A stretch of 64,000 bases of DNA, taken from positions 75,515 through 139,514 of the forward strand of contig CAVPCQ010000040.1 in the NCBI GenBank assembly GCA_963702425.1, given 5' to 3'. Of the stretch, positions 844-57,044 are shown piece after piece. A program made the translations under genes and the position numbers. This DNA is from an uncultured Acidobacteriota bacterium. GTDB taxonomy: Bacteria; Acidobacteriota; Polarisedimenticolia; J045. The notes under the pieces are model-generated. The model saw nothing but the letters and a program-made list of their open reading frames with translations. It was not told where the DNA came from and ran no database searches. The number at the start of each line of letters is the position of its first letter. The first letter of the stretch is position 1.

Positions 844-1315
844 GGAACCACTGCAGCACGCCGGCCCCTTCCTTCGGCGCCCCGCCGAACTCGATCAGCG
901 CCGCGCCCCCCTTCTTGAACCCGAGGAAGTGCCCCGCATAGCCGCAGAGCCAGAAGGCTGCGGCCTCTCCCAGGTCCGGCTCGTGGCCGACCAGCGCCAC
1001 CGTCTCGGCGGTCCGCTGCCGGGCGAGCCATGCGCTCAGCGTCGCGGGGGTCCCGGACTGCGCCAGCAGAGGCGTCTCGACCGGTTCGAGCCCGCCCCAC
1101 GCGCGCGCCAGGATCTCCGCGGTCTCGCGCGCCCGGACGAGCGGGCTCGTGGCCAGCAGCGTGACCTGCGGCTCGAGTGTCACCAGCCCGCGCGTCACGC
1201 GCTTCATCTTGTCGCGGCCGTCGGCGGTCAGCGGCCGCAGCCCGTCGTCGTCCGAGCGCTTGGCCCAGACCGCACGGTCCTCGGCGATCGCGTGGCGGAC
1301 CAGGATCAGCTTCAT
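812..1315 (-). CDS. sixA: Phosphohistidine phosphatase SixA
   Basis: LILVRHAIAE, TSPLVRARETA, VGHEPDL and FKKGG motifs of the histidine phosphatase superfamily. Confidence 0.88.
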   Translation of the reverse strand: MKLILVRHAIAEDRAVWAKRSDDDGLRPLTADGRDKMKRVTRGLVTLEPQVTLLATSPLVRARETAEILARAWGGLEPVETPLLAQSGTPATLSAWLARQRTAETVALVGHEPDLGEAAAFWLCGYAGHFLGFKKGGAALIEFGGAPKEGAGVLQWFLTPGQLRALG

Positions 1316-37810: not shown

Positions 37811-37927
37811 GAGGCTATTATAAAATACCACATTTTTATCATAACCCGATATTGCAAACGACTAAGTACGGTCAGCGCGGCCGGAGCCGGGCGGATGCCC
37901 CGGCGCCGGCGGACACCTCGGCGCCGG

Positions 37928-40627
37928 TCACTTCGAAGGCGGGCCCTCGAGCACGTCGAGCGCCAGCATCTCGCCATTCCTGTTGAAGACGACCGACTGC
38001 GCCTCCTCAGGCATCTTGAATTTGAAGGGCGTGACCTCCCCCTCGACGACGATCGGGACCGCCGCCTCGCGGCCGCCCCGGAACGTCACCGTGAGCGGCA
38101 CCTTGCCGCGGAAGAAGACGCCGTCCACGGCGTGCTTCTTCAGCCCGACGACGGTGCGCTGGTGGATCGTCCCTTCGATCAACCACTTCCCGTCCTCGGT
38201 CGCCCGCTGCTTCCACTCGACCCGGTACTCGGGGAGGCCGATCCCGCGGACCCACTGGTCGAAGAACCAGTCCATCCGGCCGCCGTAGACCTTCTCGGCC
38301 ACCTTCTGCAGCTCGCGCGTCGTGACTTCCTTGCCGGCGAGCTGCTGCGCCATCTCGCGCAGGTAGAGCTTCATCTTCTCGTCGCCGAACGTCATGCGCA
38401 GGACGTGGAAGGCGTACGGGCCCTTGTTGTAGACCGCCGTCTGGTAGCCGCGCCAGCCGTCTCCGCTCCAGAGCGTGCTCGCGTCCTGGACACTGCTCAT
38501 CAAGTCGGTCTCGAGCACGGCGCGGCGCCAGGACTCGACGTGGTCATCGTAGACCTTCCTGCCGTACTTGGCCTCCATGAACAGTGCCGACGAGAATTCG
38601 GCGAGGCTCTCGATGAACCAGTAGCTGCGGTCGTTGGCGTTGGCGATCAGCGAGCCCCACCACTGGTGCGCCACCTCGTGCGGCACGACCGATTTGACGA
38701 AATAGGTGATGCCGGCGCCGCCCATCGTGCCGAGCGTCCCCTCGCCGCGGAAGACGCCGCTGCCGAGGTAGACGATCGAGCTGGGCGCCTGGCCGTAGAA
38801 CGAGCCGAACGGGTCGTTGACGAGATCGAGCTTGGAATAGGGGTAGTCGACGCCGTAGACGTCGCGGTAGAAGTTGAGCGACTCCGCGGCCTGGTCCGCG
38901 AGGGGCTGGAGCTGCTTGGGGCGGATCTCCCAGTCGGTGATCGAGTTCTTGTCGACGAAGATCCGGACCGGGATCTTCGTCCCGTCCAGCCGGGTGGCCT
39001 GGACCGACGACTCCGCCTGCTCGTAGATCCCGAAGATGACGGTCGGGAACTCGACCGGGGCCTGGGCCCGGTAACGCGTGATCGAAACCCCGTCCTCGAC
39101 CTTCGACTCGACCGCCCGGCAGATGCCGAGCGTCGTGTACTTCGCCGGGACCTTCACCGTGAGGTCGAAGTCCGGGATCATGTCGCCGAAGCGGACGAGC
39201 GGCAGCCACCCGCCGCGCGCCACGTACGAGAACGACCAGTTGTAGTTGTAGATCGAGCGCTTGGCGTCGAACTGGATCCGCAGCGTCAGGTCCGACCCCG
39301 CCGGCACCTTGCGACCGAGCAGCACGAGGCCCGACATCGGCCCGGTCTTGGCCCAGGTCAGCTCGCGCCCGTCGCCGTCCTGCAGGGAGTTGATGATCAG
39401 GGTCGGGCTCTTCAGGTCCTTCGCTTCGGTCTGGGCGCGCAGCCGGACGATGAAGACCGGCAGCCGCTCGATCTCGCGCTTGATCTTCAGCCGGTAGGTG
39501 AGGTCTCCCGACGTGTCCTGGGGGTCGACGAGGGCCAGCTCGACCGTCCCGGAGAGCCCTTCGATCTGGAAGTCGCGGGAGGCGGCGTCGTCCCGGCGTT
39601 CGAGGTCCCACGGGGTGACGCCGGCGGCACGCGTCGCCTCGCTCGGGTAGGCGTAGAGAACGCCGCGCCCGACGACGCCGAAGCTCACCTCGAGCGGGTC
39701 CCACTCGTCGTAGCCGAGCCAGGCCCAGTGCTCGCCCGTCGAACGCCGCACGGACGCGGTCCAGTAGCGGTGCCCCGGCTCCGGCAGCACCCGGAAGAAG
39801 GAGAAGGGGTCCTCGCGCAGCCGCTGGTCGCGCTCGCGGCGGGCCTCGTCGAGGAACTTCGTCAGGGTGGCGGACGCAGCGTCCTTCTCGATCGGCCGCG
39901 AACCCGTGAACGCCGCGTCGAGGATCTCCTTGCAGGAGGCGGGATCGCACCCGATCCGGACCATGGTCGGAGTGAAGACGATGTCGTCCTCGTGGATCGT
40001 CTTGACGATCTCGTGGACGCGCGGGAAGGGGCCCCATCCGGCAGGCGGCTCGTAGGCGTACTCGATCGCCTCGGCCGCGATCGTGATCGAGGACAGCTCG
40101 CCGTGCAGGAGGTCCTTGTAGGCGGTCCCCTTCGCAGCTCTCAGGCGCATCCCCTCGCGCTCGAAGACGAACATGTCGAACGCGAAGTAGACCTCGTCCC
40201 CGATGTCGCCGCGATGCAGGCCGGTCCAGCTGTCGTCAACCTTCTCGGCGGTCACCTTGAAGCCGTCGCCGCCGGGCGCGGGCCCCAGGGTGAGGAGCAG
40301 CCGCTCGGTGCGCAGCGAGTTCCCCTCGATCGTATCGCGGTGGTAGGTCACCTGAAACGTCCCGTCACCGACCGGCCGGAACGAACGCGAATGGGTGCCG
40401 CGCTTGCTCGGCTTCTCGTCCGCGTTCTGGACCTTGACGAGCTGCTCGGTGTAGGCCTGCACCGCCTTCTCGAGCCGCTGCTGCGTCTCCTTCGGGATCG
40501 CGGCCGGCGCGGCGGTCTCAGCCGCGAGGGCCGCCCCGAGAGCGGCCACCCCGAGCATGAGAGCGCACGCCGCGACGCACCAGCGGGCCAGATCGGGCAA
40601 ACGGCGCGTGGGACGGACGATGCTCAT
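37928..40627 (-). CDS. Secreted M1-family (gluzincin) aminopeptidase
   Basis: HEVAHQWWG..WFIESLAE, VYNKG, YPYSKL, WFFDQW; signal peptide; ATG at 40627 with GGAGG. Confidence 0.85.
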   Translation of the reverse strand: MSIVRPTRRLPDLARWCVAACALMLGVAALGAALAAETAAPAAIPKETQQRLEKAVQAYTEQLVKVQNADEKPSKRGTHSRSFRPVGDGTFQVTYHRDTIEGNSLRTERLLLTLGPAPGGDGFKVTAEKVDDSWTGLHRGDIGDEVYFAFDMFVFEREGMRLRAAKGTAYKDLLHGELSSITIAAEAIEYAYEPPAGWGPFPRVHEIVKTIHEDDIVFTPTMVRIGCDPASCKEILDAAFTGSRPIEKDAASATLTKFLDEARRERDQRLREDPFSFFRVLPEPGHRYWTASVRRSTGEHWAWLGYDEWDPLEVSFGVVGRGVLYAYPSEATRAAGVTPWDLERRDDAASRDFQIEGLSGTVELALVDPQDTSGDLTYRLKIKREIERLPVFIVRLRAQTEAKDLKSPTLIINSLQDGDGRELTWAKTGPMSGLVLLGRKVPAGSDLTLRIQFDAKRSIYNYNWSFSYVARGGWLPLVRFGDMIPDFDLTVKVPAKYTTLGICRAVESKVEDGVSITRYRAQAPVEFPTVIFGIYEQAESSVQATRLDGTKIPVRIFVDKNSITDWEIRPKQLQPLADQAAESLNFYRDVYGVDYPYSKLDLVNDPFGSFYGQAPSSIVYLGSGVFRGEGTLGTMGGAGITYFVKSVVPHEVAHQWWGSLIANANDRSYWFIESLAEFSSALFMEAKYGRKVYDDHVESWRRAVLETDLMSSVQDASTLWSGDGWRGYQTAVYNKGPYAFHVLRMTFGDEKMKLYLREMAQQLAGKEVTTRELQKVAEKVYGGRMDWFFDQWVRGIGLPEYRVEWKQRATEDGKWLIEGTIHQRTVVGLKKHAVDGVFFRGKVPLTVTFRGGREAAVPIVVEGEVTPFKFKMPEEAQSVVFNRNGEMLALDVLEGPPSK

Positions 40628-40817
40628 CGCGGGACCTCCCCACGGGAAGCCGCAGGCTCGACCCGGCACCGGCCGCGGTGCGATCCGCGAGCTCCCCGGC
40701 TTGTTCGTTGCCATTCTACGCCCGGGACTATGGGGCGCTGTCAGGGGCGACGGCAAGGCCGCGGCGACTGGCCGGCACCGCCGCTCGGGGACGGCGTCAA
40801 GAAGGTCGACAGGAAAC

Positions 40818-40901
40818 GGCGCCGCGTTGCGGCAACATCAAGAAGAAAGGGCGCCGCGATGCGGCAACATCAAGAAAAAAGGGCGCCGCGTTGCGGCGCC
40901 C
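40818..40901. repeat. 32-bp tandem repeat, about 2.6 copies
   Basis: ggcgccgcg(t/a)tgcggcaacatcaagaa(g/a)aaag at 40818 and 40850, partial copy at 40882. Confidence 0.9.
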
Positions 40902-40902
40902 T
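40874..40902 (-). terminator. Intrinsic terminator of the csp gene
   Basis: Stem agggcgccgc/gcggcgccct followed by a T-tract on the minus strand. Confidence 0.8.
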
Positions 40903-40928
40903 GGGGTGTGCTTGGTTGGGAAGCCGGC

Positions 40929-41132
40929 TCAGCCGAGCTTCTTGACCTGGCTGGCCTGCGGGCCCTTCTGGCCCTGCGTGATCGTGAACTCGACCTTCTC
41001 GCCCTCGGAGAGCGAGCGGAAGCCGGAGCCAACGATCTCGGTGTGGTGGACGAAGAGGTCCGGGCCGTTCTCCTGCGTGATGAACCCGTAACCCTTCGCG
41101 TCGTTGAACCACTTTACGGTACCGGTAGGCAT
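40929..41132 (-). CDS. Cold-shock protein (CspA family)
   Basis: [27 protein letters not shown]. Confidence 0.95.
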
Positions 41133-41349
41133 CTTTACTGCTCCTGTCTCTGATCGCGGAGCGCCTCGGGCGCAACCGCCGGTCTATTGGCGGACCCTCG
41201 CGTTACCCGGAAGCGCACTATGCAACCACCGGTGGTGTTTGGGACTGCCACATACCTGCAAAGTATGAACGAATCCTGGCCCCGGCGCCATCCCCGGAAA
41301 GTGTTACCCTTCCGCGGGGCCGGTTTCTGCCCCCCCGAGGCCCCCCAGG

Positions 41350-42471
41350 ATGACTGCCGGACCCGCCCCCGCCGCCCCCGGAACAGACCCCCCCCGTCCG
41401 CTGAAGTTCGCGCCCCCCGCGGGGTTTCACGCGGAACTGAGGGCCCGGGCGGCCGAGTATTTCGCCCGGGCCGGGCGGGCCCCCCGCGGCGGGTTCCGGA
41501 TGTACCTGGACGCCGCGGTGGTCGCCGCTTGGGCTGCCGGGTCCTACCTGGGCCTGGTCTTCCTGGCCGGCAGCTGGTGGCAGGTCGTCCTCGCCGCCCT
41601 CTCGCTGGCCTGCGCGGTCGCCGCGATCGGCTTCAAGATCCAGCACGACGGCGGACACGGCGCCTTCTCGGAACTGAAGTGGGTGAACCGCCTGACCGCG
41701 ATGACGCTCGACGCGATCGGCGGCAGCTCGTACGTCTGGCGCTTCAAGCACAACATCCTGCACCACAGCTACACCAATCTCGCCGGCGTTGACGACGACA
41801 TCGACCTGGGCGTGCTCGGCCGGCTCTCGCCGGCGCATCGCCGCCTCTGGTTCCACCGGTTCCAGCACCTCTACATCTGGCCGCTCTACACGACCGTCGC
41901 TCTGAAGTGGCAGCTCGTTGACGATTTCGTCCGCATCGCCCGCGGCCGGATCGGACCCCAGCGTTTCCCGCGCCCGCGCGGCTGGGACCTGGTCGGCGTC
42001 ATCGGCGGCAAGACCTTCGCGATCTCGCTCGCGCTCGTCGTTCCGGCGCTCTTCCATCCGCTCTGGATCGTGCTGGTCGTCTATCTCGCGACGATGATGG
42101 CGATCGGGTTCCTGCTGGCAGTCGTGTTCCAGCTGGCCCACAGCGTGAGGGAGGCGGCGCATCCCGCCCCGCCGCCGGACGCAGAGCGTATCGACACCGA
42201 GTGGGCCGTGCACCAGGTCCAGACGACCGTGGACTTCGCGCGCGCCAATCCCGTGCTGACGTGGCTCCTTGGCGGCCTCAACTTCCAGGTCGTGCATCAC
42301 CTCTTCCCGCGGGTCTCCCACGTGCACTATCCCGCGCTGGCGCGAATCGTCGAGGAGGTCAGCGCGCGGCACGGCGTGCGCTACGTGGCGCACCGCTCCT
42401 TCCTGGGAGCCATCGCGTCGCACTTCCTCTTTCTGCGGGAGATGGGGCGCTCGCCGTCCGCGGCCGCCTGA
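41350..42471 (+). CDS. Membrane fatty-acid (acyl-CoA/lipid) desaturase
   Basis: His boxes HDGGH, HNILHH, QVVHHLFP; GGLNFQ. Confidence 0.9.
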   Translation: MTAGPAPAAPGTDPPRPLKFAPPAGFHAELRARAAEYFARAGRAPRGGFRMYLDAAVVAAWAAGSYLGLVFLAGSWWQVVLAALSLACAVAAIGFKIQHDGGHGAFSELKWVNRLTAMTLDAIGGSSYVWRFKHNILHHSYTNLAGVDDDIDLGVLGRLSPAHRRLWFHRFQHLYIWPLYTTVALKWQLVDDFVRIARGRIGPQRFPRPRGWDLVGVIGGKTFAISLALVVPALFHPLWIVLVVYLATMMAIGFLLAVVFQLAHSVREAAHPAPPPDAERIDTEWAVHQVQTTVDFARANPVLTWLLGGLNFQVVHHLFPRVSHVHYPALARIVEEVSARHGVRYVAHRSFLGAIASHFLFLREMGRSPSAAA

Positions 42472-42481
42472 AGCGCGGCGG

Positions 42482-42727
42482 TCACTTGCGGCGCATGCCG
42501 CGCGTGTAGACCTTCCCCTGGATGATCTTGTGCGCCGGAGCGCCGCCGACCATCCGGGGCCGTGCGAACTCCTGGCCGCAGCCGGGGCATCGCATGTCGC
42601 CTTCCGTGTGATCTTCCGCGATCCGCTCGACGAGACACTTGACGAGGCCACCGCTACCCCCCTTCCGGTAGCGGTAGATCAGCGCGCCGCAGGCGCGGCA
42701 GTGGATCGCTATCGTCCGGAAGTCCAC
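42482..42727 (-). CDS. Small zinc-ribbon hypothetical protein
   Basis: CRAC and CPGC pairs, YRKGGSGGLVKC; host-like codons. Confidence 0.65.
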   Translation of the reverse strand: MDFRTIAIHCRACGALIYRYRKGGSGGLVKCLVERIAEDHTEGDMRCPGCGQEFARPRMVGGAPAHKIIQGKVYTRGMRRK

Positions 42728-42746: not shown

Positions 42747-43598
42747 TCATGACGATCCGGTCCGGGCGGGCGATGACGGTGCGTCGGGACCGGCGGCCGG
42801 CGCCGCGCTGGCCTTGGCGTAGCGCTCGACGACGGCGACGGCGATCAGGCTGTCGAGGTGCAGGACCTCGCTGGCCCCCGCGTGCCTGAACCACTTGTCC
42901 CCGCCCGACGCGGGCGAGAGGACCGAGATGTAGAGGTTCGGCCCGAGGGCGCGGGCCATCAGCGTCATGGACAGACGGCGACCGATCTCTCCCGGCTCGG
43001 CAACCTCGATCAGCATCGCTTTCGCCGAGTCGACCCGCGCCGCCTGAAGGGTCTCCTCGTGCTCCGCCATGCCCCGCACGACGAGAAAGCCGGCGGCGGC
43101 GGCCGACTCCGCAGCCTCCTCTCCGTCGTCGACAATCAGCACGGTCTCGCCCCGTTCCCGGAGCTGGCCGGCCACCAGAGCGCCGATCGCCCCGAACCCC
43201 GCCACGATCACGTGCCCGGAGAGCTGGTCCAGTCTCTTTTCCATTCTTCGGTTCTCCCGGAACGTGACCACTTCCGGCGACGAGAGGATGCCGGCGAGGC
43301 TCGAGACGGAGTAAGTGCCGACGGCGAGGAGCACGATCATGAAGACCATGAGGAAGAACTTCTGTCGCAGGTCCAGGTCGGTATAGTCGCCCATCGTCGT
43401 GAGCGTGTTGACGGTGTTCCAGAGCGCATTGGTCACGCGGTGGAAGGTCGACTGCGATTGGTCGTCCAGCAGGTAGAGGCCCACGGTGGCGAACGCAGCG
43501 ACCGTCAGGAGCAGCCCCGCCACGTTCTTCACCGTGCGGATCAGTTGGCCGTAGCGCTCGGGCCCGCCCTGGGTGGCGAAGACGCGATAGATCGGCAT
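42747..43598 (-). CDS. Two-TM potassium-channel-family protein with RCK/TrkA-N domain
   Basis: TM-pore helix (WNTVNTLTTMGDY)-TM, then HVIVAGFGAIG Rossmann motif. Confidence 0.8.
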   Translation of the reverse strand: MPIYRVFATQGGPERYGQLIRTVKNVAGLLLTVAAFATVGLYLLDDQSQSTFHRVTNALWNTVNTLTTMGDYTDLDLRQKFFLMVFMIVLLAVGTYSVSSLAGILSSPEVVTFRENRRMEKRLDQLSGHVIVAGFGAIGALVAGQLRERGETVLIVDDGEEAAESAAAAGFLVVRGMAEHEETLQAARVDSAKAMLIEVAEPGEIGRRLSMTLMARALGPNLYISVLSPASGGDKWFRHAGASEVLHLDSLIAVAVVERYAKASAAPAAGPDAPSSPARTGSS

Positions 43599-43711
43599 GG
43601 CGCCATTCTGGGGCGGGCCGCATCGCCGTGTCGACGGGTTCTGGCGCGCCGGCCAGCCCCCCGTATCATGGCGTCTCCGCACCGGGCCGACCCGGCGGGA
43701 AGAGGGCGTCC

Positions 43712-44185
43712 GTGACGAAACTCCGCCGAGGATCCCGCCCGCAGGCTGCTGCCCGGACCATCCGGGCGGCTTCCGTCCTGCTCGGCCTGCTGCCGGCCCT
43801 GCTGTTCGCCTTCGCCTGCGGACCGGAGATCCCCGACTTCCCGCATCCCCAGTCGCTCGCGGAAGCGAAGACCGACGCCGCAGCGCGCGGGGTCCCGATC
43901 CTGATCGACTTCTACACACCCGGGTGAGGCGCCTGCAAGTCGTTCACCCGTGAGGTGAGCCACAACGAAGCCCTGCGCGACGCGCTGCAGAACAAGGTCG
44001 CCTTCGTCAAGGTCAACGCGAACACGCGCGATGGCGGCCCGGTGGCGATGTCCTACGGAGCGTCCGGCGTCCCCTTCTTCGTGCTGGCCGACGCAGCAGG
44101 CAAACCGCTCGCCTCATGGAGCGGCTACATCGGGCCGAAGCGCTTCACCGAGCAGCTCGAGAAGGGTCTGGCGCGGGCGCGCTGA
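43712..44185 (+). CDS. Thioredoxin-like lipoprotein with in-frame TGA (probable selenocysteine, UxxC)
   Basis: Lipobox FAFAC; ILIDFYTPG-TGA(43925-43927)-GACK continues in frame to SGVPFFVL (cis-Pro loop) and a stop at 44185. Confidence 0.8.
43942..43960 (+). promoter_or_regulatory. Candidate bacterial SECIS hairpin
   Basis: Stem gttcacc/ggtgagc with loop cgtga; loop starts 22 nt after the UGA with G at loop position 2. Confidence 0.55.
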
Positions 44186-44265
44186 CTAACTCGGCCCGCA
44201 CTTCGGGTGAACGCTCCCCTCGTGTACGCTCGCGCGGTCCTCCCCCCCTGGAAGGAGACCGCGCG

Positions 44266-44844
44266 ATGCCCGAGATCTGCGGTACCGAAACCGAGAAGAA
44301 CCTGCTCAAGGCCTTCGCCGGCGAGTCGCAGGCGAGGAACCGCTACACGATGTTCGCCAAGGCCGCGATCAAGGAAGGATACGAGCAGATCGGCGCGATC
44401 TTCCTCGAGACCGCGGACAACGAGCGGGTCCACGCCCGGCTCTTCTTCGACCACCTGAAGAGCGGCGAGGACCTCGAGATCACGGCCGCCTACCCGGCCG
44501 GCCGTGTCGGAACCACCGCCGAGAACCTGCTGGCCGCGGCAGCCGGGGAGAAGCTGGAGTGGAGCGCCCTCTATCCCGGCTTCGCCGACATCGCCGAGCG
44601 CGAGGGCTTCCCCGCCGTGGCCGGCACCTTCCGCGAGGTGAGCCAGGTCGAGGCCTGGCATGAGACGCGCTACCGCCGCCTTGCCGCCCGCGTGCAGGAG
44701 GGGACGGTCTTCCTGCGCACGGCGCCCCAGCGCTGGAAGTGCCGCGAGTGCGGCTACGTCCACGAGGGGACCGAGCCGCCGAAGGTCTGCCCGTGCTGCA
44801 AGCACGCGCGGGCTTTCTACGAGATCTACGCCGAGAACTACTGA
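44266..44844 (+). CDS. rbr: Rubrerythrin
   Basis: NLLKAFAGESQARNRY, ERVH, EAWH, C-terminal CRECGY..CPCC; AAGGAG RBS. Confidence 0.93.
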   Translation: MPEICGTETEKNLLKAFAGESQARNRYTMFAKAAIKEGYEQIGAIFLETADNERVHARLFFDHLKSGEDLEITAAYPAGRVGTTAENLLAAAAGEKLEWSALYPGFADIAEREGFPAVAGTFREVSQVEAWHETRYRRLAARVQEGTVFLRTAPQRWKCRECGYVHEGTEPPKVCPCCKHARAFYEIYAENY

Positions 44845-44911
44845 GGCACCGAATTGCGAGGGTGGGGACGGCCCGGCCGCGGGCCGCCCCCTGCCAGTCC
44901 GACCCCTCCCG

Positions 44912-47900
44912 CTACCGCAGGATCCCTCCGTTGGCGACGTTGTTCGACTCGTTGGTCTCCGCGACCGAGTCCGCGGGGTCGACGACTCCCAGCAGGTAGA
45001 GGCCGGCCGCGGTGTACCCCGTGGGGACCTTGAAGTTCAGCTTGAATGCCTTCTTCGCCCGCGGCTTGAGCGCGCTGACGGAGAAGCTGCTGATCCGGAT
45101 GTCGTCGCCCGAGGGCGCGCTGTCGACCGACACCAGGGCCCATGCCTGGGTCGAACTCGAGTTCACCGTACCGTTGTTCACGACGGTGAACTTGCCGGTG
45201 ATCGTGCAGCGCGTGACCCCCTTCTTGGTCTTGCAGACCTGCCTGGCACCGCGCCACGAGCCGACGAGGTCCGGCCCGGACGTCAGGCGGATCTCGACTG
45301 GGAGCGTCGCCGACCAGCCCGATTCGACGGCTGTGTTCGTCGCCGAGCGGGCCTTGGTGCGCACGCCGTAGGAGCCGCGCGCTCCCCAGGCGTGCGACGC
45401 GCCCGTCGTGCCGACGGGCAGCCAGCCCGAGTTCGTGCCGTCGATCCAATCGAAGAAGTACTGCACCGGGTTCCCCTGGCTGGACGCGGCGCCGCCCGTC
45501 GTGTACGCGAGGGACTGCCCCGGCGCACCGGTGAGAGGCCCAGCGAGCGACGTCGGCGCGGAGACCGTCTCCACCGCCGCCGAGATCGTGACGTTCAGTG
45601 TCCCCGACCAGTCGGAGACGACGGTCTGAGTCACCGCGCAGCGCGCGCGCACCCTGACCGGATAGCCGCCGGCCGCCGCCCAAGCGTGCTGCGTCACGAC
45701 GTCGCCGGCGCCGCCGCCGGAGAGCGCGGCCGCAGCCTGGTCGACACGGATCCGCGGGCGGGTCAGGCCGTTCCGCCCGTCGGTGATCGACACGCCCGTG
45801 CTCGTGAACGCTGCCAGGACCTCGTCGACCGTCGCGGTGGGTTTCTTCGACTTGAGGACGGCCCACGCCCCGGCGACGTGCGGCGTCGCCATGGACGTGC
45901 CGTCCTTGACGCCGAACCCGCCGCCGGTGACCGACGAGTTGATGTCCGATCCCGGCGCGAGCAACTCGAGCATCGACGCCGAGTTCGAGAAGCTGGAGAC
46001 GCCGTCGAATTTCGTCGTCGAGCCGACCGCCACCGCGCTCGAGATGCAGGCCGGGTGGCTGATCGAATCCGTGTAGTAGTTGTTGCCCGTCGCGATCGCC
46101 GTCGCGATGCCGGCCGCGCGCAGATTGTCGATCGCCTGCTTCATCGCCGGGCTCTCGCCGTCGCAGTAGGTGTAGAAGCGCTCGCTGCCCAGGCTCAAGT
46201 TGACGGAAGCGATGGCGAACGCATTCCGCTGGCCGTAGACCCACTCCAGGCCGGCGATGTCGTCGCTGGGGTAGCTGCCCGTTCCGCCGCCGTTCAGGAG
46301 CGAGAAGACCTGGACGGCGATGATCGAAGCCTCCCTGGCGACGCCGGAGAAGGTCGTCCCCTTTCCGGCGGCGATCCCCGCGCAGTGGGTCCCATGGTCG
46401 CACGTCGGATCACTGCACGGCGTCGCGGCCCCGACGCCGATCTGCGTCGCCTGGCCGTTGGGGCAGGCGCTGGTCGTCCCCTGGGCGGTCGTCGAGAAGC
46501 AGGCTTCGGCGACGACCTTGCCGGCCAGGAACGGGTGGTTCCGCTCGACCCCCGTGTCGAGGATGGCGACGGCCTGGCCCGCGCCGGTGGCACCCGCGGC
46601 CCACGCGGCCGGCGCCCCGATCAGCGGCACGCTCTGCTCGAGCGTCATCTCGTGCAGCCGGTCCTCTTCGATCCGCGCGACCTCGGGGCTGCCGGCCAGC
46701 CGTTCCAGCGCGCGCGCGTCGGCCTCGAGCGCCAGCGCCGCCACGAACCGGTAGCGCCGGTGGACCGCGAACGTCTCGCCGGCCAGGCGCGCGAGCAGCG
46801 CCTCCTGCGCCTGCGCGATCCGGTCCTGCTGGGCCAGCGCGGAGGCCGGCGCCATCAGCCCCTCGGGCGCGAACGGCTCGCGGAGCGTGACGATCACGCG
46901 CACGCGCCCCTTCTGGCGCACGATTGGCACGAGCCGCTCGAGATCGGCGCGCGGGTTGCCCGCGGTCTCGACCGGCATGGCCGATCCGGGCGCGGCCGCG
47001 GATGCGAGCAGCCCGTCCGCTCCCGCCAGTCCCGCCGGCGTGATCCAGGTCGACATCGTGCCGTCGCCCCAGTCGAACTGGTACTGCGACGCCTCGCCCA
47101 GGCTGCAGGTGGCGCCACCCGAGCGGTACTCGTAGGCCGTCGCCGGGACGCCGGCGGCCGGGCCGGCCGGCGCACGCGGCGTGGTGATCGTGCCGCCCCC
47201 GCCGCCGGTGATCGTGACCGTGAGCGATCCCGAGTCGCCGGAGACCTTGGCGGTGTCGGACGCGCAGCGCGCGCGGGCCTTGACCGGATAGGACCCGTTG
47301 TTCGTCCAGGCGTGGCTGGCGGTCACGGTGTTGCCGCCGCCCCCGCCGGTGATCGTGAAGGTCTGCGCGGCGGATGTCCCGCCGCCCGGCGCCGGCGTGA
47401 AGACCGTGACCTGCGCGGTCCCGGCCGTCGCGACGTCGGCCGCGGCGATGATCGCCGTCAGCTGCACGGCGCTGACGAAGCTGGTCGGCTGGTCGGCGCC
47501 GTTCCAGCGCACGACCGAGCCGTTGATGAAGCCGCTGCCGTTCGCTGTGAGGGTGAAGCCCAGCGAGCCGGCCGGTGCGCTCGACGGCGCGATCCCGGTC
47601 AGCACCGGCACCGGATTGCCGCCGCCGCCGCCCGAGGCGAGAACCGCTGCGCGGGCGTCGATTCGACCGGTCCCGGTCTTGTCGTCCTCACCCGGCGCCC
47701 CGATGTCGTCAGCCGTCTGGCGCAGGATCGACTTCACCTCGGCGGGGGTCAGGCTCGGGTTCTTCGAGAGCATCAGCGCGACGATGCCCGCGGCCTTGGG
47801 CGTGGAGGACGAGGTTCCGCCGAACTGGTACTCGTAGTTCGGGTCGACCCCGGTGGCGGCCTGGTCCTGGTTGTAGCCTGCGCTGCCGAGCCGATCGGTG

Positions 47901-50900
47901 GTGTAGCTCCACGGACCCGGCGCGACGACGTCCGGGCCGGCACCGATGTAGCTCGAGCCCCAGGTCGTCAGCCCATCGGACGACGAGGCGCTCTTGTGCT
48001 CGTCGGTCGGGCTCGAGGCGCCGACGCAGATGACCGCCATCTGCGCGGTCAGGTTGCAGGGGAATGCGGTCTCGTAGGACCACGGCGGCCGGTCCGGTCC
48101 GTTGCCGGCGGCGATGACGACCGAGCGGCCGGCGGCGAGCGCGTTCTGAAAGGCGGTCGTGATCGCGTTGCTCGGCGCATCGACCCAGCCCCAGGAGTTC
48201 GAAAGCACTGAGGCCCCGTGGGAGACCGCGATGCTGATCCCGTTGGCCATGCCGGCCTCGCTGCCCGCATGGTTGACCGGCATGATCTTCACGCCCGGCG
48301 CGGTCCCCGCGACGCCGATCCCGTTGTCGCGGATCGCACCGACGTTGCCCGCACACGCGGTGCCGTGGTTGGAGTTCGCGTCGCGTGGCGCACCTCCGAC
48401 CGCCCCGGTATCGCCGTCGTAGCCGGTGACCAGGTTCAGGTCGGGATGCCCCGGCTCCACGCCGTCGTCGATCACCGCGACGACGACGCCCGGCGAGACG
48501 GTGACCTCGTTCCAGGCTTCGACGACGTTGAGATCGTTGTCGTCGTTCCCGAGCCCGGCGATCTGCCCGACGTTCTTCAGCTCGTACTGCCGGCCGCCGT
48601 AGGGATCGTTCCCGATCGACTCGGTGTCGACGTTGGGGGTGCCGACGATCCGAAGCTCATCGATGTAGAGCCCTTCGTCGCTGACGCCGGCGTCGCTGAT
48701 GAACTCGAACACGATCCGGAAGGCCGTCGTGTGGAACGCGGGCGGCACGCGCAGCAGCATCCGCCGCCAGCCATTGATCGCCGTGCGATCATCCGCAAGC
48801 TTGCCGGTGAACGGCACCGCGAGGAGTTGGGCGACCTGGGAAGCCTGGGTATTGGCGTCGAAGAACCAGACCTTGCCGTAGTCGTAGAGCGTGACCTGCC
48901 CGCTGCCCGGGTCGAGGTATGGGTTCTCGAACCTCGCCCAGAACCAGAACTCGACGTAGGCCTCCTCGAACGCGGCGAGATTGACGATCGGCGAGTAGGC
49001 AAAGACGTCCACGTTGCCCGGGTAGGGTCCGGGCGGCGGGATGCCCTGCGCTCCGTTGCCGGTCATGTAGATCGACTGCGCGCTGGTGCGCACCCGCGCG
49101 TTCGTGTACACCGGTCCGGCTTCGGTCGTCATGTCGGCGTTGTAGACCTCCCACCCGGTGACCGCGGTGTCGAAGTTGTCGAAGAGCACGGTCGACCAGG
49201 TCGGGGCTGTCATCGGGTGGGCCGGCGGGACCCGCGGCGACGGGTCGGCGGCAGCCTCCGGCACGAGCGGCCGGAGCGGCGCAGTGAGCACCGGGAGCCG
49301 TCCCTCGGCGGGGCGTAGGGACTGCGGACCGTCGGGCTCGAAGACCAGCACGTGATTCGGCTCGGCGAACAGGACCTCCGGCAGGCGCGCCAGGGCGCGC
49401 GACACGGCGTAGGCCCGACCGCCCGCCGCGGAAGCAATCCGCACCATGAAGAGATCGCCGAAGAGCGCCCGCGTGTCGACCAGGCCCAGGCTCGCCGCAT
49501 GCCGCTCGACGAAGCGCTGCGCGGCGTCGGGCGGCGTCGGGGAGCGGAAGCCGACGATCACCTCGTCGGAGGCGATCTTCGTCGCCCCGCCGAGCTCGAA
49601 GACCGGCTGCGCCGGCAAACCGTCGGCCAAGGCCCGCTCGAGCGCCGTCGGGCCGGCGGCCTGCGGCGCAGCGGCCCCCTTGCCCGCGCCCATCGACGGC
49701 GCGCGGAACAGGGCCAGGCCGCGGCTGGCAAGCGCGTCGCGCTCGCTGCGCGGATCGTGCGACCAGGACTCCCGCTCCACGACCGTGCCGCGCAGCGCAG
49801 CGGCTGCACCCGGACCCTCGTCGACGGCGACGAGGTACGGGCTGGGCTCCAGCACGACGAGCCGCCCCTGGTAATAGTAAGAGAACGGCGGCTCGCTCCC
49901 GACCGTCACCGACTCGATCGGCGCGCCGCTCGTCGGCGAGACCGGACCGGCCCCTTCGAGCCCTGTCGCACCGGCTGCAGACGACGCCCCGGAAAGAGCG
50001 CCTGCTGCGACCGCGGCCCCCTCGTCCGGCCCGCCGGGCGCAAGCGTCGGCGTCAACCAGCCCGAGGTCGTCCCGTCACCCCAGTCGAACTGGTACTCGA
50101 CCCCGCCCCCGCTGGCGCAGATCGATCCGCCCGTCGTGTAGTTGTAGCTCGTGCCGACGGTCCCCGCCGCCTGTCCCGTGGGCGTCGTCGGCGCGGTCAC
50201 GTCGTCAGTCCCGCCGCCGTCGCCGAGGACGATGCGGTAGATGCTGCGACCGTGTGTCGCCGCCGCGAGCCGGCGCGTTCCATCCGGGTGGCGCGTCAGG
50301 TCGAGGTCGTAGATCGCGAGCAGCGGCATCCCCTCGTTGAACGGCTCCCAGCTCGCGCCGTCGTTCAGCGTCCGGTAGACGCCCAGGTCGGTCCCGACGT
50401 AGAGCACGCCCGTCTCGTCGCGATCGACCGCCAGCGCGGTCACCGGCAGGTCGGGTAGGCCGCCCGCCAGGCCGGTGCGGGAGATGTCGGTCCAGTTCGT
50501 CCCACCGTTGGTCGTCCTGAAGACGTGGCCGGTCGCTCCCGGGGTATTGGCCCCGAATCCGGAGAAGGCGGCGTAGTAGATCGACGAGTCGTAGGCGAAG
50601 ACGTCGGAGACGAAGCGGTTCGGCAGCGTCGCCCCGGTCAGGTCGGTCCAGCTTCCGCCGCCGTTCCGCGTGACCTGGACCTTCCCGTCCCCCGTTCCGA
50701 CCACGATCGTGTTCGAGTCGCCGCGCCGCACCGAGACCGCGGAAATCGCGGAGAAGCGCGATGAGGCCCGCGTCAGGTCGGTCGAGATGGCGGTGAAGGA
50801 GTCGCCCCGGTTGTCGCTGCGATAGAGCCGCGAGGTCGCCCAGTAGACCCGTCCGACGACGTTCGGGTCGACGACCAGCGGCGCGTAGAAGAGAACGTTG

Positions 50901-52735
50901 TCGTTGAGGTCGACACCCGAGCTGTCGCCGATCTTGCCCGGCCACTCGGCGACCGCGGCGGAGCCGTTGTTGTCGTTGCGCTGGAACTGCATCGGCCCGC
51001 CTTTGAGCGAGTAGCGCGTGCCGTACCAGGTGCGCGTGTCGAACGGGTCGATCGCCGAAAAGCCGCCGTCGCCGGCGTCGAGCCCGACCCAGGTCGCCCC
51101 GCCGTCGGTGGTCTTGGCCTTCGCGTTGTCCTGCATCCCCCCGAACAGGACGTTCGGGTCGGTCGGGTGCTGGGTGATCGACTGGAACTGCAGCGTGGAG
51201 AGGTTGCCGTTCCGGTCGGCCCAGCTCGCGCCGCCGTCGGTCGAGCGGTAGATCCCGCCGTCGTTGGCGATCCAGATCGTGGTCGGGTTCTGCGGGTCGA
51301 AGGCGATGCTGTGCAGATCAGGGTGCGAGGTCCTGTCGAGCGCGAGGCCGTCGTGCGTCGTGAAGGTCGTTCCGGCGTCGCGGGTGATGAAGATCGTCCC
51401 GTCCCAGCCGTTGCTGTACATCGCGGCGCCGCCCGCCGCGAGGACGTTGGCGTCGGTCGGGTGCACGGCGAGCACGTTGTCGTAGCTGCACTGCTGGCCG
51501 CAGTAGCTGACCTCCTGGAAGTATCCCTGCGGGATCAGGGTCAGCGGGTCCCAGAACTGTCCGCCGGTACTGCTGCGGAACAGTACCCCCGAGACCCCCT
51601 GCACGCCCTCCGGGCGGATCGTCTGGATGCCCGCCCAGACCCGCTGCGGGTCGCTCGGGCTGACGAGCACCTCAACCCGGCCCGCGTCGCCGAGCCACGG
51701 GAACCACTTCCCCTGCGCCGCCGCTGCCGGCCCGAGGATGGCGTCCCACGTGCTTCCACCGTTGGTCGTCTTGAAGACCCCGAGGCCGTCGAACCCGGCG
51801 TAGATCACGCTCGGATTGTTCTTCTCCATCGAGATCGCGGAGACGTTGGCGCAGACGCGCGGGTTGGCGCCGTCGCAGATCTTGACCGCCTGCGGCCAGG
51901 TCGCGCCGCCGTCGGTCGAGCGGTAGATTCCCGGCTCCGCCAGCCCCGGCTTGACGTCGACCAGTCCGCCCACGCGCGTCGAGACGCCGACCCAGAGCTG
52001 CTGCGGGTTCTGCGGGTCGACGACGACCGCGGAGATCGCCCGCCCCGAGAAGACGTCGGCCCCCAGGACGGTCCAGCTCCCGCCGCCGTTCGTGGTCTTC
52101 AGGAGGCCGGCGCCGTAGTGGCTGTCGCTGCCGTGCGGCTCGCCGGTCCCGACGTAGAGGATGTCCGGGTCCGTGGGATCGAATGCCATGAACCCGGTCG
52201 CCTGCGACGGCGCAGTCGCGGTCAGCGGCGTCCAGCTCGTGCCGCCGTCGGTCGTCTTCCAGACCCCGCCCTGCGCGGCCCCGGCATAGACGACGTTCGA
52301 GTTCCGCGGGTCGACCAGCACGGCCGTGGCCCGCCCGCTGCAGTTCCTACGCATCCACTCCTGGCCATGGTTCTCGCCGATGATCGGCGACGGCCCGACG
52401 GGCGACCAGGTCGGGAGCGCGGCGACCGCGCTGGGTGCCATCAGCGCGCGCTGCGCGGCGAAGTGGGCTCTCGCCGTCTCGACTGCCGCGTCGGGCAGGC
52501 CGGTCGCGGGGTAGCTGCGCATGTAGAACATCAGCTCGTCGCGGCCGCGGCGCTCCCCGGCCTCTCCCTCGCCGGGCGATCCGGCCCGGACAGCCGCGAG
52601 AACCGGCCGGTGGCACCCGGTGGCGCACTCGGCGGGAGCTTCGCTTCCGCGAACTGCCGGCACCTCGTAACGGGTCACGGCACACGCTGAGAGCAGCATC
52701 GCGAGACACGATGCGACGACGAGCCGCTTCGACAT
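44912..52735 (-). CDS. 2607-aa lipoprotein: BNR/VPS10-like propeller, two S8 subtilases, IPT/TIG, three PKD-like domains, CARDB-like C-terminus
   Basis: Lipobox LLSAC; many (S/T)xDGGxxW Asp-boxes; triads [18 protein letters not shown] and LDTG/HGTHCAG/GTSMATP; YxFDWxDGT three times; ETNESNN. Confidence 0.88.
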
Positions 52736-52985
52736 AGCTGTCTCCCCGCGCGGAACGGACGCACGGACTATTCCGGGCAGCGCGGCACGCTCTCCGGCAG
52801 CCGGCCCCGTCCCGTTTGATCCGTCCGCCCCGACACGCCCGAACGGTGGGCCGGGGCGACCACTTCCCTGCGGGAATTATCCGCCGTTTACGCGTCATTG
52901 GTGTGAGGTAAAGCGCGGCAGCGCGCGTTTCCCGGAGCCCTTCGCGGTTCGCGCTCCCGCGGCGTCGCCGCCCGCGCCTCCCGCC

Positions 52986-55140
52986 CTACTTCCGCTTCGC
53001 CTCGTACACCCCGTCCGGCTGGATGAAGGTCGCGCCGGTCGTCTTCCCGTCCTTCTCGACGAAGCGGGCGCTGTAGCCCTTCATCCCCTTGAGAGTGAAC
53101 TCCGTTCCCTTGTACGGGATCAGCTCGTAGGTCGGCTGGCCGGGGATAGTCGCGACGAGCGTCTTGCCGCGCCGCGAGATCGTGATCGTCTGCGGGCCCA
53201 GCGCATACTCTCCGACGAATCGGTCGAGGAACGCGGCCTCGTACATTGCGGCCGGCGGCTTGCGCGTGAAGACGATCGGGTCGACCGACGTCTCCAGGGG
53301 TATGGTGATCGTCTCGATGTCCCCCTTCAGGTTGCCGCCGAAGGCGACGAGCGCGCCCTTCAGGTCGCTCTCCGTGACGCGGAAGACGTCGTAGTGCCAG
53401 TGCGCAAGCGCCGGCTTGAAGCCGTTGTAGATCATCGTCAGCGCTTCCGGCTTGCCCGAGGCGGTGATCGTCAGCACGCCGTAGGCCGGGTGCTCGTACT
53501 CGGCCGCGTAGTCCGCAAGCGGGTGCGAGGGCTTCGTCCCCGTCCGGCGCTCCCCGGCCTGCGCCTTCTCCGACTCCTTCTCCAGTCGCCTTCCCCTGCT
53601 CGCGGCGCGCCTTGAACCGCCCGCTCCAGTCGATCGGTTCCAGCTCCAGCAGGCGGTCGTGGATCGCGTCGGCGAGGATCATCGCCAGCGGGTTCCCGTT
53701 GAGATTGGTCAGGATCACCGCGCCCGCGTTCTCGTCGGGCATCAGCGAGACCATCGCCGAGAAGCCGTCGATGTTGCCGCCGTGGTGGATCCGCGCGTGG
53801 CCGCGGTAGGGCTGCACGAACCACCCGAGCCCGTAGAGCACGATCGGCTTCTCGGGGTAGACGAAGGGGGACTCGGCGACCATCTGCGGCTTGTGCGTTT
53901 CCGCCAGCTGCGTCGCGGAGACGATCCGCTTGCCATCCAGCGTCCCGTCGCCCAGCTGCAGCCTGAGCCAATCGGCCATGTCGTTCGCGCTGGAGTAGAT
54001 CGTCCCGGCCGGCCCGAGCGCCCGGACGTCGCGGTAGGCCATCTCGGTGAGCTCTTCGGTGTCCTTTTTCAACTCGTACGGCTTCGAGAGGTTGCCGCTC
54101 TTTTCGGCGTCGGGAGCCGAGAAGACCGTGCTCTCCATCCCGAGCGGGACGAGGATCCGCTCGCGGGTGAACGCCTCCCAGGTCGTCCCCGTCAGCTCCC
54201 CGGCCAGGATTCCCGCCGTCATCACCATCAGGTTCTGGTACTGGAAACGATTGCGGACCGAAGCCGACGGCTGGAGGTACTGAAGGCGCCCATACATCTC
54301 CTCCCGGGTGGCGTTCGAGCCGTACCACATCAGGTCGTGGCGCGGCAGGCCGGAGCGGTGAGTGAGCAGGTCGCGCGGGGTCATCAGTTTGGTCGCCGTC
54401 TCGTCCTGCAGCTTGAAGTCCGGCATGTAGCTCACCACCGGCTTGTCCCACTCCAGCTTCCCCTCGTCGACCAGCAGCGCCAGGTCGAGCGCGGTGAAGG
54501 CCTTGGTCGACGAGCCGATCGCGAAGAGCGTGGCGGCGTCCACCGCGAGCGCGCCCTTGACGTCGCGCTGGCCGTAGCCCCGCTCGAGCACGACCTTCCC
54601 ATCCTTGACGATCGCGATCGCCACGCCCGGGACCTTCCACTCCTTCATCTGCGCCTCGACGAAGGCGTCGAAGCCGCCCAGCAGCTCCTCCACGCCCTTC
54701 TTCGCGGCGACCGCGGCTTCCCCCTTGCGCGCCAGCGTGAAGGGAAAGCTCGCACCCCCCTGGGTGAAGTCGCCGGCGATCGACTGGCCGTCGGGCGCGA
54801 GCTTCCCCTGGAAGGTCGGCGTGCCGGGGACGCCCGAGATCGAGAAACGGATCGCCTGCGCTTCCACCTTCACGTCGGCGAGCGCGAGGTCCTTCGCCCC
54901 CTGCAGCGGAATGTCGATGTCCCCGTTCCAGGCGCCGTCCTTGCCGACCGCGAGGTCGACGATCACTCCCAGCTCCGCGCCGGGGATCTTGATCGCTCCC
55001 TCCCAGCGTCCCGCCGGGCCGATGTCCGCGGCGAACACCGCGGATGGCGCGGCCGTGAGCAGGGCCACGGTCGTGGCGAGGAGCGTCGCGAAGAGGACGG
55101 CGACTCGGACGGGGAGCAGGCGGGTGCGGAGCGACGGCAT
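52986..55140 (-). CDS. Serine hydrolase (beta-lactamase/PBP-like, DUF3471-type C-terminus); apparent frameshift at about 53586
   Basis: SSTK (SxxK), YQN, HGG, LLTHRSGL; YAAEYEHPAYG continues in a second frame. Confidence 0.85.
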
Positions 55141-55199: not shown

Positions 55200-57044
55200 T
55201 CACGGCCGTCCGTCGGTCGAGCCGGACCGCTCGGCCCGCACCGCGCCGCGGGTGGTGATCAGGAGCAGCCCCGTCGCGGACCCCGGGTCGGGCGAGAAGA
55301 CCGCCCGCGCTCCCGAGCCGTCAGCAGCCCGGTACTCGGTGCCGCGGTACGGCGCCAGTTCGAGCGCGCGGCCGTCGCTGGTCTCGACCAGCAACCCCGG
55401 GCCGCGCCGGACGACGCGGATCACCGTGTCGCCGTCCCGGTAGGTCCCGACGAACCGCGCCAGGTAGGCCGGATCGGACATCAGCGGCGACGGCCGGCGG
55501 CGGAACACGATCGGCGGCGCGGCCTCCTCGAGCGCCACCGAGACGGTCTCGACGTCGCCCTGGAGGTTGGTGCCGAACTGGAGGAAGGTCTGGTTCTGGG
55601 CCGGAAGCCGGCCCATCGGTGCGCGAAAGGTGTCGAAGTGCCAGTGCGTCATCGCGGTCGTGATGCCGCCGAAGTTGACCGCCAGCCCGCCGCCCTGGAA
55701 GACGACGTGGAGCGCTCCGTAGGCCGGATGCCCGTACTCCCCGGCGTAGTCCCCCAAGGCATGCGAGGGGACGGTGCCCGCCTTGCGGTCGATCTCCTGC
55801 ACCGCTTCCAGCGCCGCGCGGGCCATGAGCTGCTGCTGCTGCCAGTCGCGCAGGCGCGCCCCCCACGCCGCGGGCGGCGCGCCGAGCAGGCGGTCCGCCG
55901 CCTCGAAGGCCACCGCCAGGGGCAGGTAGGAGTTATCGCGGTTCGCCAGCACCGCGATCGCGAAGCGGTTCCCCGGAACGACCATCACGACGCCCGAGAA
56001 GCCGTCCACCATGCCGTCGTGGCCGAAGGCGGGCCGGCCGCGGTAGCTCGTCACGCGCCAGCCGAGCCCGTACGCGTCGTTCGTCAACTCCGGAAAGGGC
56101 AACGGATCGGCCACGACCTGCGCGCGGTGCAGCTCGCTCCACTGCGCGGCCGACACGAGCTGGACCTCGCCCGCCCGCCCCCCGTCGAGCTGGAACCGGA
56201 GCCACGTCGCGAGGTCGCGGGCCGTGGAAGTCAGTGACGCCGCGGGCGCGATCCCGGTGAGATCGAGGAACGGCGTGCGCACCAGCTCGCCGTCGCGCGC
56301 GGTGTATCCGCTCGCGAACTGCGGCGAGTTGCCCGTGACCTGGGTCGAGAAGCCGGTCGCACCCATCGCGAGCGGCACCAGCAGCCGCTCCTTGACCAGC
56401 TCCTCCCAGGAGCGCCCCCCAACCTGCTCGGCCATGCGCCCGGCGACCATGACCATCAGGTTCTGGTACTGCGCGTGGTCGCGCAGCCCGGCGGTGGGCG
56501 GCAGCCAGCGCAACCCCGCGAAGAGCGCGTCCCGCGTCCGGCCCGAGCGGTACCAGGTCATGTCGTGGCGCGGCAGGCCGCTGCGATGCGTGAGCAGGTC
56601 GCGCAGCGTCAGCGTCTCGGTCGCCACCGGGTCGGCCATCCGGAACTCGGGAAGCACGTCGCCGACCGGGCGGTCCCAGGCCAGCAGCCCCTCGTCCACG
56701 AAGGTCGCGAGCAGCGTGGCGGTGAACCCCTTGGTGATCGAGCCGATCACGAAGCGGGTGTCGGGGGTCACCGGTGCGCCGGTCTCCCGGTTCGCAACGC
56801 CGTAGCCCGCGAGCAGCAGGTTGCCGTCCGCACCCACGACCGCGACCGCGGCTCCCGGCACGTTCCACGCCGCCATTTCCTGGCGAACGACGGCGTCGAA
56901 CCCGTCGAGCGGGTTCGACGGCCGACGTTTCGCCTCGGCGCGGGGGATCAGGCCGGGCGTCGCGACCAGGGCGGCGACGAGGGCGACGCCGGCGACGAGG
57001 GCCGCGGGCCGCGGAGCCCGCCGCGCGATGGAACGCGCGGTCAC
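55200..57044 (-). CDS. Serine hydrolase (beta-lactamase/PBP-like), paralogue of the neighbouring gene
   Basis: SITK, YQN, HDG, LLTHRSGL, YAGEYGHPAYG. Confidence 0.87.
   Translation of the reverse strand: MTARSIARRAPRPAALVAGVALVAALVATPGLIPRAEAKRRPSNPLDGFDAVVRQEMAAWNVPGAAVAVVGADGNLLLAGYGVANRETGAPVTPDTRFVIGSITKGFTATLLATFVDEGLLAWDRPVGDVLPEFRMADPVATETLTLRDLLTHRSGLPRHDMTWYRSGRTRDALFAGLRWLPPTAGLRDHAQYQNLMVMVAGRMAEQVGGRSWEELVKERLLVPLAMGATGFSTQVTGNSPQFASGYTARDGELVRTPFLDLTGIAPAASLTSTARDLATWLRFQLDGGRAGEVQLVSAAQWSELHRAQVVADPLPFPELTNDAYGLGWRVTSYRGRPAFGHDGMVDGFSGVVMVVPGNRFAIAVLANRDNSYLPLAVAFEAADRLLGAPPAAWGARLRDWQQQQLMARAALEAVQEIDRKAGTVPSHALGDYAGEYGHPAYGALHVVFQGGGLAVNFGGITTAMTHWHFDTFRAPMGRLPAQNQTFLQFGTNLQGDVETVSVALEEAAPPIVFRRRPSPLMSDPAYLARFVGTYRDGDTVIRVVRRGPGLLVETSDGRALELAPYRGTEYRAADGSGARAVFSPDPGSATGLLLITTRGAVRAERSGSTDGRP

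Follow-up and report, generated by a model that had tools for sequence, protein, structure and literature searches.

What becomes of a protease that must cut its own chain to mature when it is housed within a loop of another domain? This question is raised by a stretch of 64,000 nucleotides (hereafter the window) from an uncultured, soil-type Acidobacteriota bacterium (GenBank assembly GCA_963702425.1, contig CAVPCQ010000040.1, positions 75,515 to 139,514 of the forward strand), in which one long frame, P0001, encodes a predicted surface lipoprotein. A first-pass annotation, made without database searches, had described P0001 as a giant lipoprotein with two complete subtilase modules nested inside split PKD-like domains, and this description is now borne out by profile coordinates, structure models and conservation. 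As for the purpose of such an arrangement, we lean, with some reserve, towards a reading in which pro-subtilase cassettes occupy the loops of the first two PKD domains (PKD1 and PKD2), and the re-formed, probably disulfide-stapled PKD holds the self-cut pieces on the anchor.

The interruption of the PKD copies was located with a profile of 92 positions, derived from 87 unsplit copies, taken from 25 proteins or frames that do not belong to the lineage of the window. This independent profile matched P0001 five times (Table 1; E-values computed for a nominal 1e6 sequences), once over nearly its full length (PKD3) and four times over one half. Because the half-matches end or start at profile position 52 of 92, PKD1 and PKD2 are interrupted at the identical position, as the first-pass annotation had claimed for the loop. 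In both copies, the break site is the loop following the DWGDGT-S-W motif, and the inserts reach 912 and 451 amino acids (aa), respectively. Read most simply, these sequence matches describe three PKD domains in tandem (PKD1-PKD2-PKD3), the first two of which carry cargo in the same loop. Taken individually, the halves (N1 and C1, N2 and C2) received no Pfam call, yet they matched complementary parts of the unsplit-copy profile. PKD3 passed the Pfam PKD_4 threshold (29.7 bits vs a cutoff of 27) and matched solved PKD domains by sequence, namely 4xed_A (E 2.4e-7) and the collagenase PKD domains 4jrw, 4aqo and 2y72 (about 1e-3). The landmarks given by the first-pass annotation were all found in place: the 13-residue motifs that close the N-halves (aa 881-893 and 1885-1897), ASHAW (from 1806) and TQHAW (from 2348) in the C-halves, the contiguous and Cys-free third copy, and the Cys codons at 50117 and 47264 (Cys873 and Cys1824) and at 47105 and 45638 (Cys1877 and Cys2366).

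Structure models suggest that the separated halves build a single domain. For copy 2, the AlphaFold2 (AF2) model of N2-cargo-C2, based on an alignment of 61 rows, had a mean predicted local distance difference test (pLDDT) of 88.9, with block means of 76-91 in the N-half and 69-92 in the C-half, the low-confidence stretches being confined to linkers (model residues 58-78) and to the junction LEQSVP between prodomain and protease. In a Foldseek-independent fold search of 48,161 chains, this model superposed on the PKD domain 4xed_A at 96 of its 97 residues (Z 11.4, root-mean-square deviation (rmsd) 2.4 A, 32% identity). Since the superposed range runs from model residue 2 to 542, both halves contribute to the sandwich, and measured against a solved PKD domain the predicted copy 2 is a beta-sandwich. 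For copy 1, N1 and C1 were folded as two chains, with alignments of 15 and 16 rows. The score was 0.66 in three runs vs 0.00 for the best of three controls, with contacts agreeing to at least 94% and a partner pLDDT of at least 81; the mark used for this score is reached by 58 of 80 solved complexes and by 2 of 110 mismatched pairs, counts that are rough here because custom alignments were used. The surest contacts joined N-half residues 25-31 to C-half residues 7-12, 43-48 to 21-26, and 21 to 45, which we take to be the strand pairs B-E, C-F and A'-G of the PKD nomenclature, so that the halves would interdigitate in both sheets. As modelled, each PKD domain closes into a single beta-sandwich around the cargo, with the N-half supplying strands A, A', B and C and the C-half supplying strands E, F and G. 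A nested, domain-insertion arrangement is found for copy 2 by profile, AF2 model and superposition, and for copy 1 by profile and two-chain model. The structure prediction proposed by the first-pass annotation to see whether the halves form one sandwich thus gave a clear picture for copy 2 and a divided one for copy 1, where the two-chain model agreed but the halves stayed at a pLDDT of about 25 in a single-chain model discussed below.

Both cargoes are complete proteases. Pfam PF00082 (peptidase family S8) matched P0001 with 266.8 bits over two stretches, which belong to different S8 subfamilies, and the catalytic triad and the oxyanion Asn are intact in each: D1423, H1457, N1545 and S1642 in the S8 domain of cargo 1 (1416-1690), and D2060, H2114, N2218 and S2281 in that of cargo 2 (about 2034-2340). 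Cargo 1 opens with an Ala/Gly/Pro linker of about 58 aa, followed by a fervidolysin-type N-prodomain (about 952-1132) that scored 24.1 bits on the sub-sequence and 18.3 bits on the whole protein, for a cutoff of 21. The jelly-roll region noticed in the first-pass annotation (about 1181-1367), all-beta in a low-confidence AF2 model, gave no Pfam match at E<=1, and neither did the IPT-like domain at 1708-1795, which was recognised as the NCBIfam 'choice-of-anchor Z' (CoaZ) repeat (E 3.3e-31). In cargo 2, a linker of about 30 aa precedes a subtilisin-type prodomain (about 1927-2030), and the model places the likely autoprocessing junction near LEQSVP (2032-2037). The cargo 2 model aligned with unprocessed pro-subtilisin E (3whi_B) over 334 residues, prodomain included (Z 44.8, rmsd 1.9 A, model residues 99-492), and by this model cargo 2 is an ordinary pro-subtilisin. 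Subtilases mature by cutting after their own prodomain. By analogy with this established biology, both prodomains of P0001 would be removed autocatalytically, and because a prodomain is present in every cargo whose N-terminal part was seen, the expected cut would fall within the nest.

How far this organization is conserved was addressed in 41 genomes, i.e. the window's own genome, four genomes of the same genus and 36 others of the family and class (including G034, flagged as unpublished). The cassette-2 nest was found in the window's genome and in all four same-genus genomes (80-84% identity); across the other 36, the best match (E 1e-60) covered S8 only. Among the relatives, G001 has an intact frame of 2721 aa with the same order (N...C, N...C, NC), and the orthologues of G003 (L012) and G004 (L011) keep this order spread over two to three frames; in G002, where a contig end cuts the locus, C1 was seen and an N1-like half lies on another short contig. 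The double nest is accordingly counted as conserved in 4 of the 4 same-genus genomes. The frame breaks of L011 and L012 may stem from real decay or from indels that arose during assembly in the GGC repeats of Gly runs. In the named-genome collection, the nearest loci belong to uncultured Acidobacteriota genomes. Some apparent split copies were discarded, those of P0241 (gaps of 115 and 120 aa) as missed weak copies and that of L012 (190 to 1710) as an effect of the frame change, and the C-half of L014, below the count threshold, was read directly. A HMMER scan of 1.84 billion representatives found the nest in 5 of the 150 best clusters, two of these five being fragments.

Homologues from metagenomes retain the second nest only. 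Among the comparative arguments, the strongest is that the presence of N1 and C1 coincides exactly with an internal position of cassette 1, both being gone where this cassette is N-terminal. In P0002 and P0003 (1750 and 1751 aa; about 60% identity), cassette 1 lies directly behind the signal peptide without N1 and C1, and is followed by the cassette-2 nest, two unsplit PKD domains and CARDB. N1 and C1 are likewise both lacking in a paralogue on another contig of the window's own genome, in which cassette 1 is also N-terminal. This paralogue (L009:1024-5346; G000 contig C23, about 43000-47350) has a P0002-like order. Its cassette-1-like S8 domain has no prodomain, and the catalytic His and Ser are replaced by Val and Ala, which makes it a likely pseudoprotease. 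The downstream part consists of an IPT-like domain and a split PKD holding an S8 domain with intact motifs, the C-half being in another frame (frameshift or error). The locus is flanked on both sides by frames with near-identical N-termini, one of them integrase- or transposase-like by eye. In P0001 itself, a 36-nt direct repeat (47191-47226 and 47332-47367; 83% identical, 141 nt apart) brackets exactly C1; its two copies encode T-I-T-G-G-G-G-G, one where the IPT-like domain ends and the other where C1 ends. We infer that a repeat-to-repeat deletion would excise C1 exactly (47 codons) and create the IPT-to-N2 junction of P0002 and P0003.

Other homologues vary the theme. The nest of P0018 holds a pro-S8-IPT cargo, and P0173 and P0323 have a cassette-2-type S8 domain followed by an unsplit copy of this PKD family. 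The search for split PKD halves with other cargo, proposed by the first-pass annotation, found none in a small and biased set recruited with S8-containing queries (344 fetched proteins, 22 named-genome loci and the own genome, with three loci of the family): all split copies seen hold an S8 cassette. Eighteen of the 22 named-genome loci come from other phyla and had only unsplit arrays or isolated weak matches. No 'parent' protein combining a propeller with an unsplit PKD was found among 120 propeller homologues (495-1575 aa), the sole match being an orthologous fragment. The closest propeller homologues outside the genus (P0347-P0354) continue with a Pro/Thr linker and a C-terminal all-beta domain, whose motifs NGDFE..G..W, SGSW.AWLGG and FFVDDV look similar, by eye, to the all-beta domain in cassette 1.

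The first-pass annotation had noted one Cys in each half of both split copies and none in the unsplit copy, and had seen in the pair a possible staple. Counted over 99 unsplit copies and 12 split copies with both halves in view, the pair occurred in 11 of the 12 split copies vs 12 of the unsplit ones; a further 69 unsplit copies had the C-half Cys only, 18 had neither, and none had the N-half Cys only. The C-half Cys (81/99) is therefore the usual state of this PKD family. The association of the N-half Cys exclusively with a C-half Cys fits a disulfide, and the N-half Cys is missing from the unsplit copies of the same proteins that hold split copies. The pair is strongly enriched in split copies, without being exclusive to them. 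In the two-chain model, both Cys are among the interface residues of N1 and C1. On the C-F ladder, the C-half Cys27 lies beside N-half residues 41-42, six residues from the N-half Cys36. In the alignment, 4xed_A lacks Cys at both columns. Unsplit copies with both Cys were observed in L020 (all five copies) and L026 (all four), as well as in L029, L031 and L034, whose titles name Planctomycetota, Thermotogae, KSB1, an unclassified bacterium and Bathyarchaeia; a disulfide variant of the domain would thus exist independently of the insertion. Two giant proteins, P0241 (5395 aa) and P0243 (1608 aa), consist of this PKD family repeated in tandem and unsplit, with about 50 and 14 copies, respectively; almost all of these copies have one conserved Cys, in an ARC motif, and lack a partner Cys.

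These data can be assembled into a mechanism. A complete self-cleaving pro-subtilase cassette would have been inserted into each of the first two PKD domains, and each subtilase would cut at the end of its own prodomain, leaving the chain nicked into anchor-propeller-N1-pro1, domain-S8a-IPT-C1-N2-pro2 and S8b-C2-PKD3-CARDB. These three pieces would be held together by the interdigitated PKD sandwiches, probably with a disulfide staple between the Cys of the B-C loop and the Cys at the end of strand F, and both mature proteases would stay on the cell-surface anchor. After PKD splitting, neither half could be lost alone, and the nest might for this reason persist in relatives with nothing upstream. 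Such a clasp function is plausible and compatible with all observations made on sequences and models. The wider proposal falls somewhat short of an even chance in our view: the split PKD may be a molecular clasp shaped by evolution, in which a self-cleaving pro-enzyme in the loop and a disulfide linking the halves turn a single polypeptide into three covalently stapled chains, with two different active proteases on a lipid anchor. Such a clasp would be the bacterial equivalent of the 'cut but held' Notch, SEA and GAIN domains, and a portable module for holding self-processing enzymes on a carrier.

Several points weigh against the idea of a clasp. PKD is a well-known solved fold, and the model matches may reflect PKD likeness and not binding after the cut. 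For cassette 1 and its halves (aa 838-1850; 14-row alignment), the AF2 model had a mean pLDDT of 59.9, left the halves unfolded at about 25 and gives no information on PKD1. In the split copy of P0018, the N-half has Ser and not Cys, and the Cys pair is also found in unsplit copies from other phyla. The split copies are kin, and as their single clade is not rejected, the Cys enrichment may go back to one or two events. An internal pro-subtilase does not require a clasp, given that two cassette-1 units stand in tandem in P0007, which lacks PKD altogether. Finally, the nest of P0126, P0157 and P0267 lies directly behind the signal peptide with nothing upstream to tether, and upstream tethering can therefore be neither a general nor the sole reason for the nest.

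In these last three proteins, the sole consequence of the nest would be to keep the cleaved prodomain covalently linked, via the N-half and C-half, to its own protease. The high local concentration of the prodomain would then inhibit the enzyme until either the linker or the prodomain is broken down, or until reduction opens the disulfide. Long disordered linkers separate the N-half from the prodomain (the low-pLDDT residues 58-78 of the copy 2 model and the linker opening cassette 1), in keeping with a latch of this kind, and PMC8551645 describes inhibitory prodomain retention for the subtilase PCSK9. Such a latch does not account for the appearance of N1 and C1 exactly where cassette 1 becomes internal, and we consider it rather unlikely as the main explanation; it is compatible with a clasp and does not exclude it.

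The nest might also have no selected role, a cassette having landed once in a permissive PKD loop and the nest being kept only by the misfolding of any orphan half. In a free FastTree phylogeny of 312 S8 domains, the split-bearing S8 domains were not one clade, with a backbone support of 0-0.6, and an approximately unbiased (AU) test on 60 of the 312 rows (14 split, 10 near neighbours and 36 random, 252 being left out) did not reject a single clade (p 0.58). A single origin of the split copies is compatible with this result, as is a multiple origin. The rarity of the nest among the best representative clusters, the unrejected single origin of the cassette-2 nest, the flexible linkers that render the loop permissive and the Cys pairs of unsplit copies are all in keeping with a neutral insertion. 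They are set against a second nest with a different cargo in the identical loop, conserved in the genus, against the joint presence or absence of N1 and C1, and against a Cys pair kept in nearly all split copies and lost from neighbouring unsplit copies of the same proteins, and a purely neutral origin appears to us improbable.

The clasp further supposes that each N-half pairs with its own C-half. C1 might instead form a circularly permuted domain together with the neighbouring N2, or the halves might pair crosswise, leaving N1 and C2 unpaired or together; the spacer between C1 and N2 is a Gly-rich linker only, and copies 1 and 2 share about 50% identity in their halves, so that cross-pairing is allowed by sequence. 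Such pairings are very hard to sustain, as P0002, P0003, P0126, P0157 and P0267 have a single N...C nest and no adjacent partner, AF2 builds a PKD domain from N2 and C2, N1 and C1 pass the complex test, and the C1-N2 junction resembles an ordinary inter-domain linker of the tandem array, such as that between C2 and PKD3. A chimeric contig or fused genes, conceivable for a draft genome of 42 contigs with orthologues broken into two to three frames in two relatives, can be practically dismissed given the uninterrupted frame of the window, the intact frame of G001 with the same order of halves, and the same order in G002-G004.

The features on which the argument rests are collected in Table 1. 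Taken together, the sequence of P0001 predicts a propeller on a lipid anchor, continued by three PKD domains in tandem and by CARDB. Its 18-residue N-terminal segment has the form of a signal peptide ending in an invariant Cys, a lipobox rule that we take as the basis for the predicted lipoprotein status. The lipobox Cys and the following residues AVTR are kept in two orthologous frames, in which the -3 and -2 residues are less canonical.

Table 1. Features of P0001, with window positions, residue numbers and matches to the 92-position PKD profile.
Feature	Residues (aa)	Window positions	Strand	Profile positions	Basis or remark
P0001, whole open reading frame		44912-52735	-		2607 aa, one uninterrupted frame
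Signal peptide and lipobox	L-S-A-C at 15-18 (Cys18)	52682-52735	-		read from translation
BNR / sortilin-Vps10-type beta-propeller region	about 100-835	50231-52438	-		Pfam PF15902, PF14870
PKD1 N-half (N1), Cys873	844-893	50057-50206	-	2-52	profile, two-chain model
Cargo 1	894-1804	47324-50056	-		Pfam, NCBIfam, AF2 model, motif residues
PKD1 C-half (C1), Cys1824	1805-1843	47207-47323	-		profile, two-chain model; flanked by 36-nt direct repeat
PKD2 N-half (N2), Cys1877	1847-1897	47045-47197	-		profile, AF2 model, structure superposition
Cargo 2	1898-2347	45695-47044	-		AF2 model, structure match, motif residues
PKD2 C-half (C2), Cys2366	2348-2386	45578-45694	-		profile, AF2 model, structure superposition
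PKD3, contiguous, without Cys	2388-2483	45287-45574	-		Pfam PKD_4, 4xed_A match, profile
CARDB domain	2507-2601	44933-45217	-		Pfam PF07705, E 2.7e-9
Profile match, N1	845-895			2-52	E 1.8e-14
Profile match, C1	1803-1842			52-91	E 1.2e-7
Profile match, N2	1849-1899			2-52	E 1.4e-13
Profile match, C2	2345-2384			52-91	E 5.4e-8
Profile match, PKD3	2389-2482			1-91	E 6.4e-27

Directly upstream of P0001, on the same strand, are two adjacent genes for serine hydrolases of the beta-lactamase family (PF00144), at window positions 52888-55140 (-) and 55200-57044 (-), the second of which also contains DUF3471. Downstream of the P0001 frame is a rubrerythrin gene (44116-44844, +). Two further long frames, at 37895-40945 (+; 1016 aa) and 41218-42651 (-; 477 aa), matched no Pfam family at E<=0.001 and may be spurious, given a G+C content of about 69%.

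Domain insertion is common, and the interest of P0001 is that the insert must cut its own chain to mature, so that the parent domain would decide whether the products stay together. If this holds true, the clasp would account for the display of several self-processing proteases in a single anchored assembly that lacks sortase, dockerin and adhesin motifs. Protein engineers would gain a small scaffold from nature, about 90 residues long, in which the permissive loop is defined and a Cys pair acts as the staple. A clean natural experiment would further be at hand, since close homologues contain the same cassette in nested and in un-nested form. Should the clasp not work, P0001 would still illustrate a well-documented rare architecture in uncultured Acidobacteriota.

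The first-pass annotation did not recognise this as a described architecture, and the full-text literature searched, a body of text distinct from supplements and subscription-only papers, gave no account of a PKD domain interrupted by a protease. The closest solved relatives of the PKD copies, i.e. the PKD domain of an archaeal M14-like peptidase (4xed) and those of the collagenases ColG and ColH, are all contiguous. 'Subt-PKD-PKD' architectures are listed in a 2008 survey (PMC2605481), and the words 'inserted', 'nested' and 'discontinuous' do not occur in the text of that survey. P0001 resembles subtilases with a C-terminal PKD, such as deseasin MCP-01 (3vv3_B vs the cargo 2 model, Z 37.0), in combining S8 and a cleavable N-terminal prodomain with PKD. 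In those proteins, however, PKD is a separate bead after the protease, whereas in P0001 the protease and its prodomain lie inside the PKD.

A nested architecture involving S8 is also found in proteases with a PA-domain insertion, and two of these, 7bj3_A and 3i6s_A, were among the fold matches of cargo 2. In the C5a peptidase ScpA, plant SBT3 and pyrolysin-type enzymes, S8 is the parent and PA the insert. P0001 reverses these roles, with a small Ig-like parent, a whole pro-enzyme as the insert and a maturation cut expected within the parent's loop. The cargo 2 model also aligned with PCSK9, prodomain included (5vla_A, Z 36.8). In PCSK9 and pro-subtilisin the prodomain is retained by non-covalent binding only, whereas in P0001 a separate split domain would provide the link. 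In the Notch heterodimerisation domain (furin S1 cut), SEA and GAIN/GPS, a domain is cut in a loop and its parts are held by interdigitated strands. P0001 is not a member of these families and may work like them, a cut domain being kept together by its strands. It differs from them in its PKD beta-sandwich, in a cut expected within the cargo and made by the cargo itself, and in a possible added disulfide, features suggested here by sequence and models.

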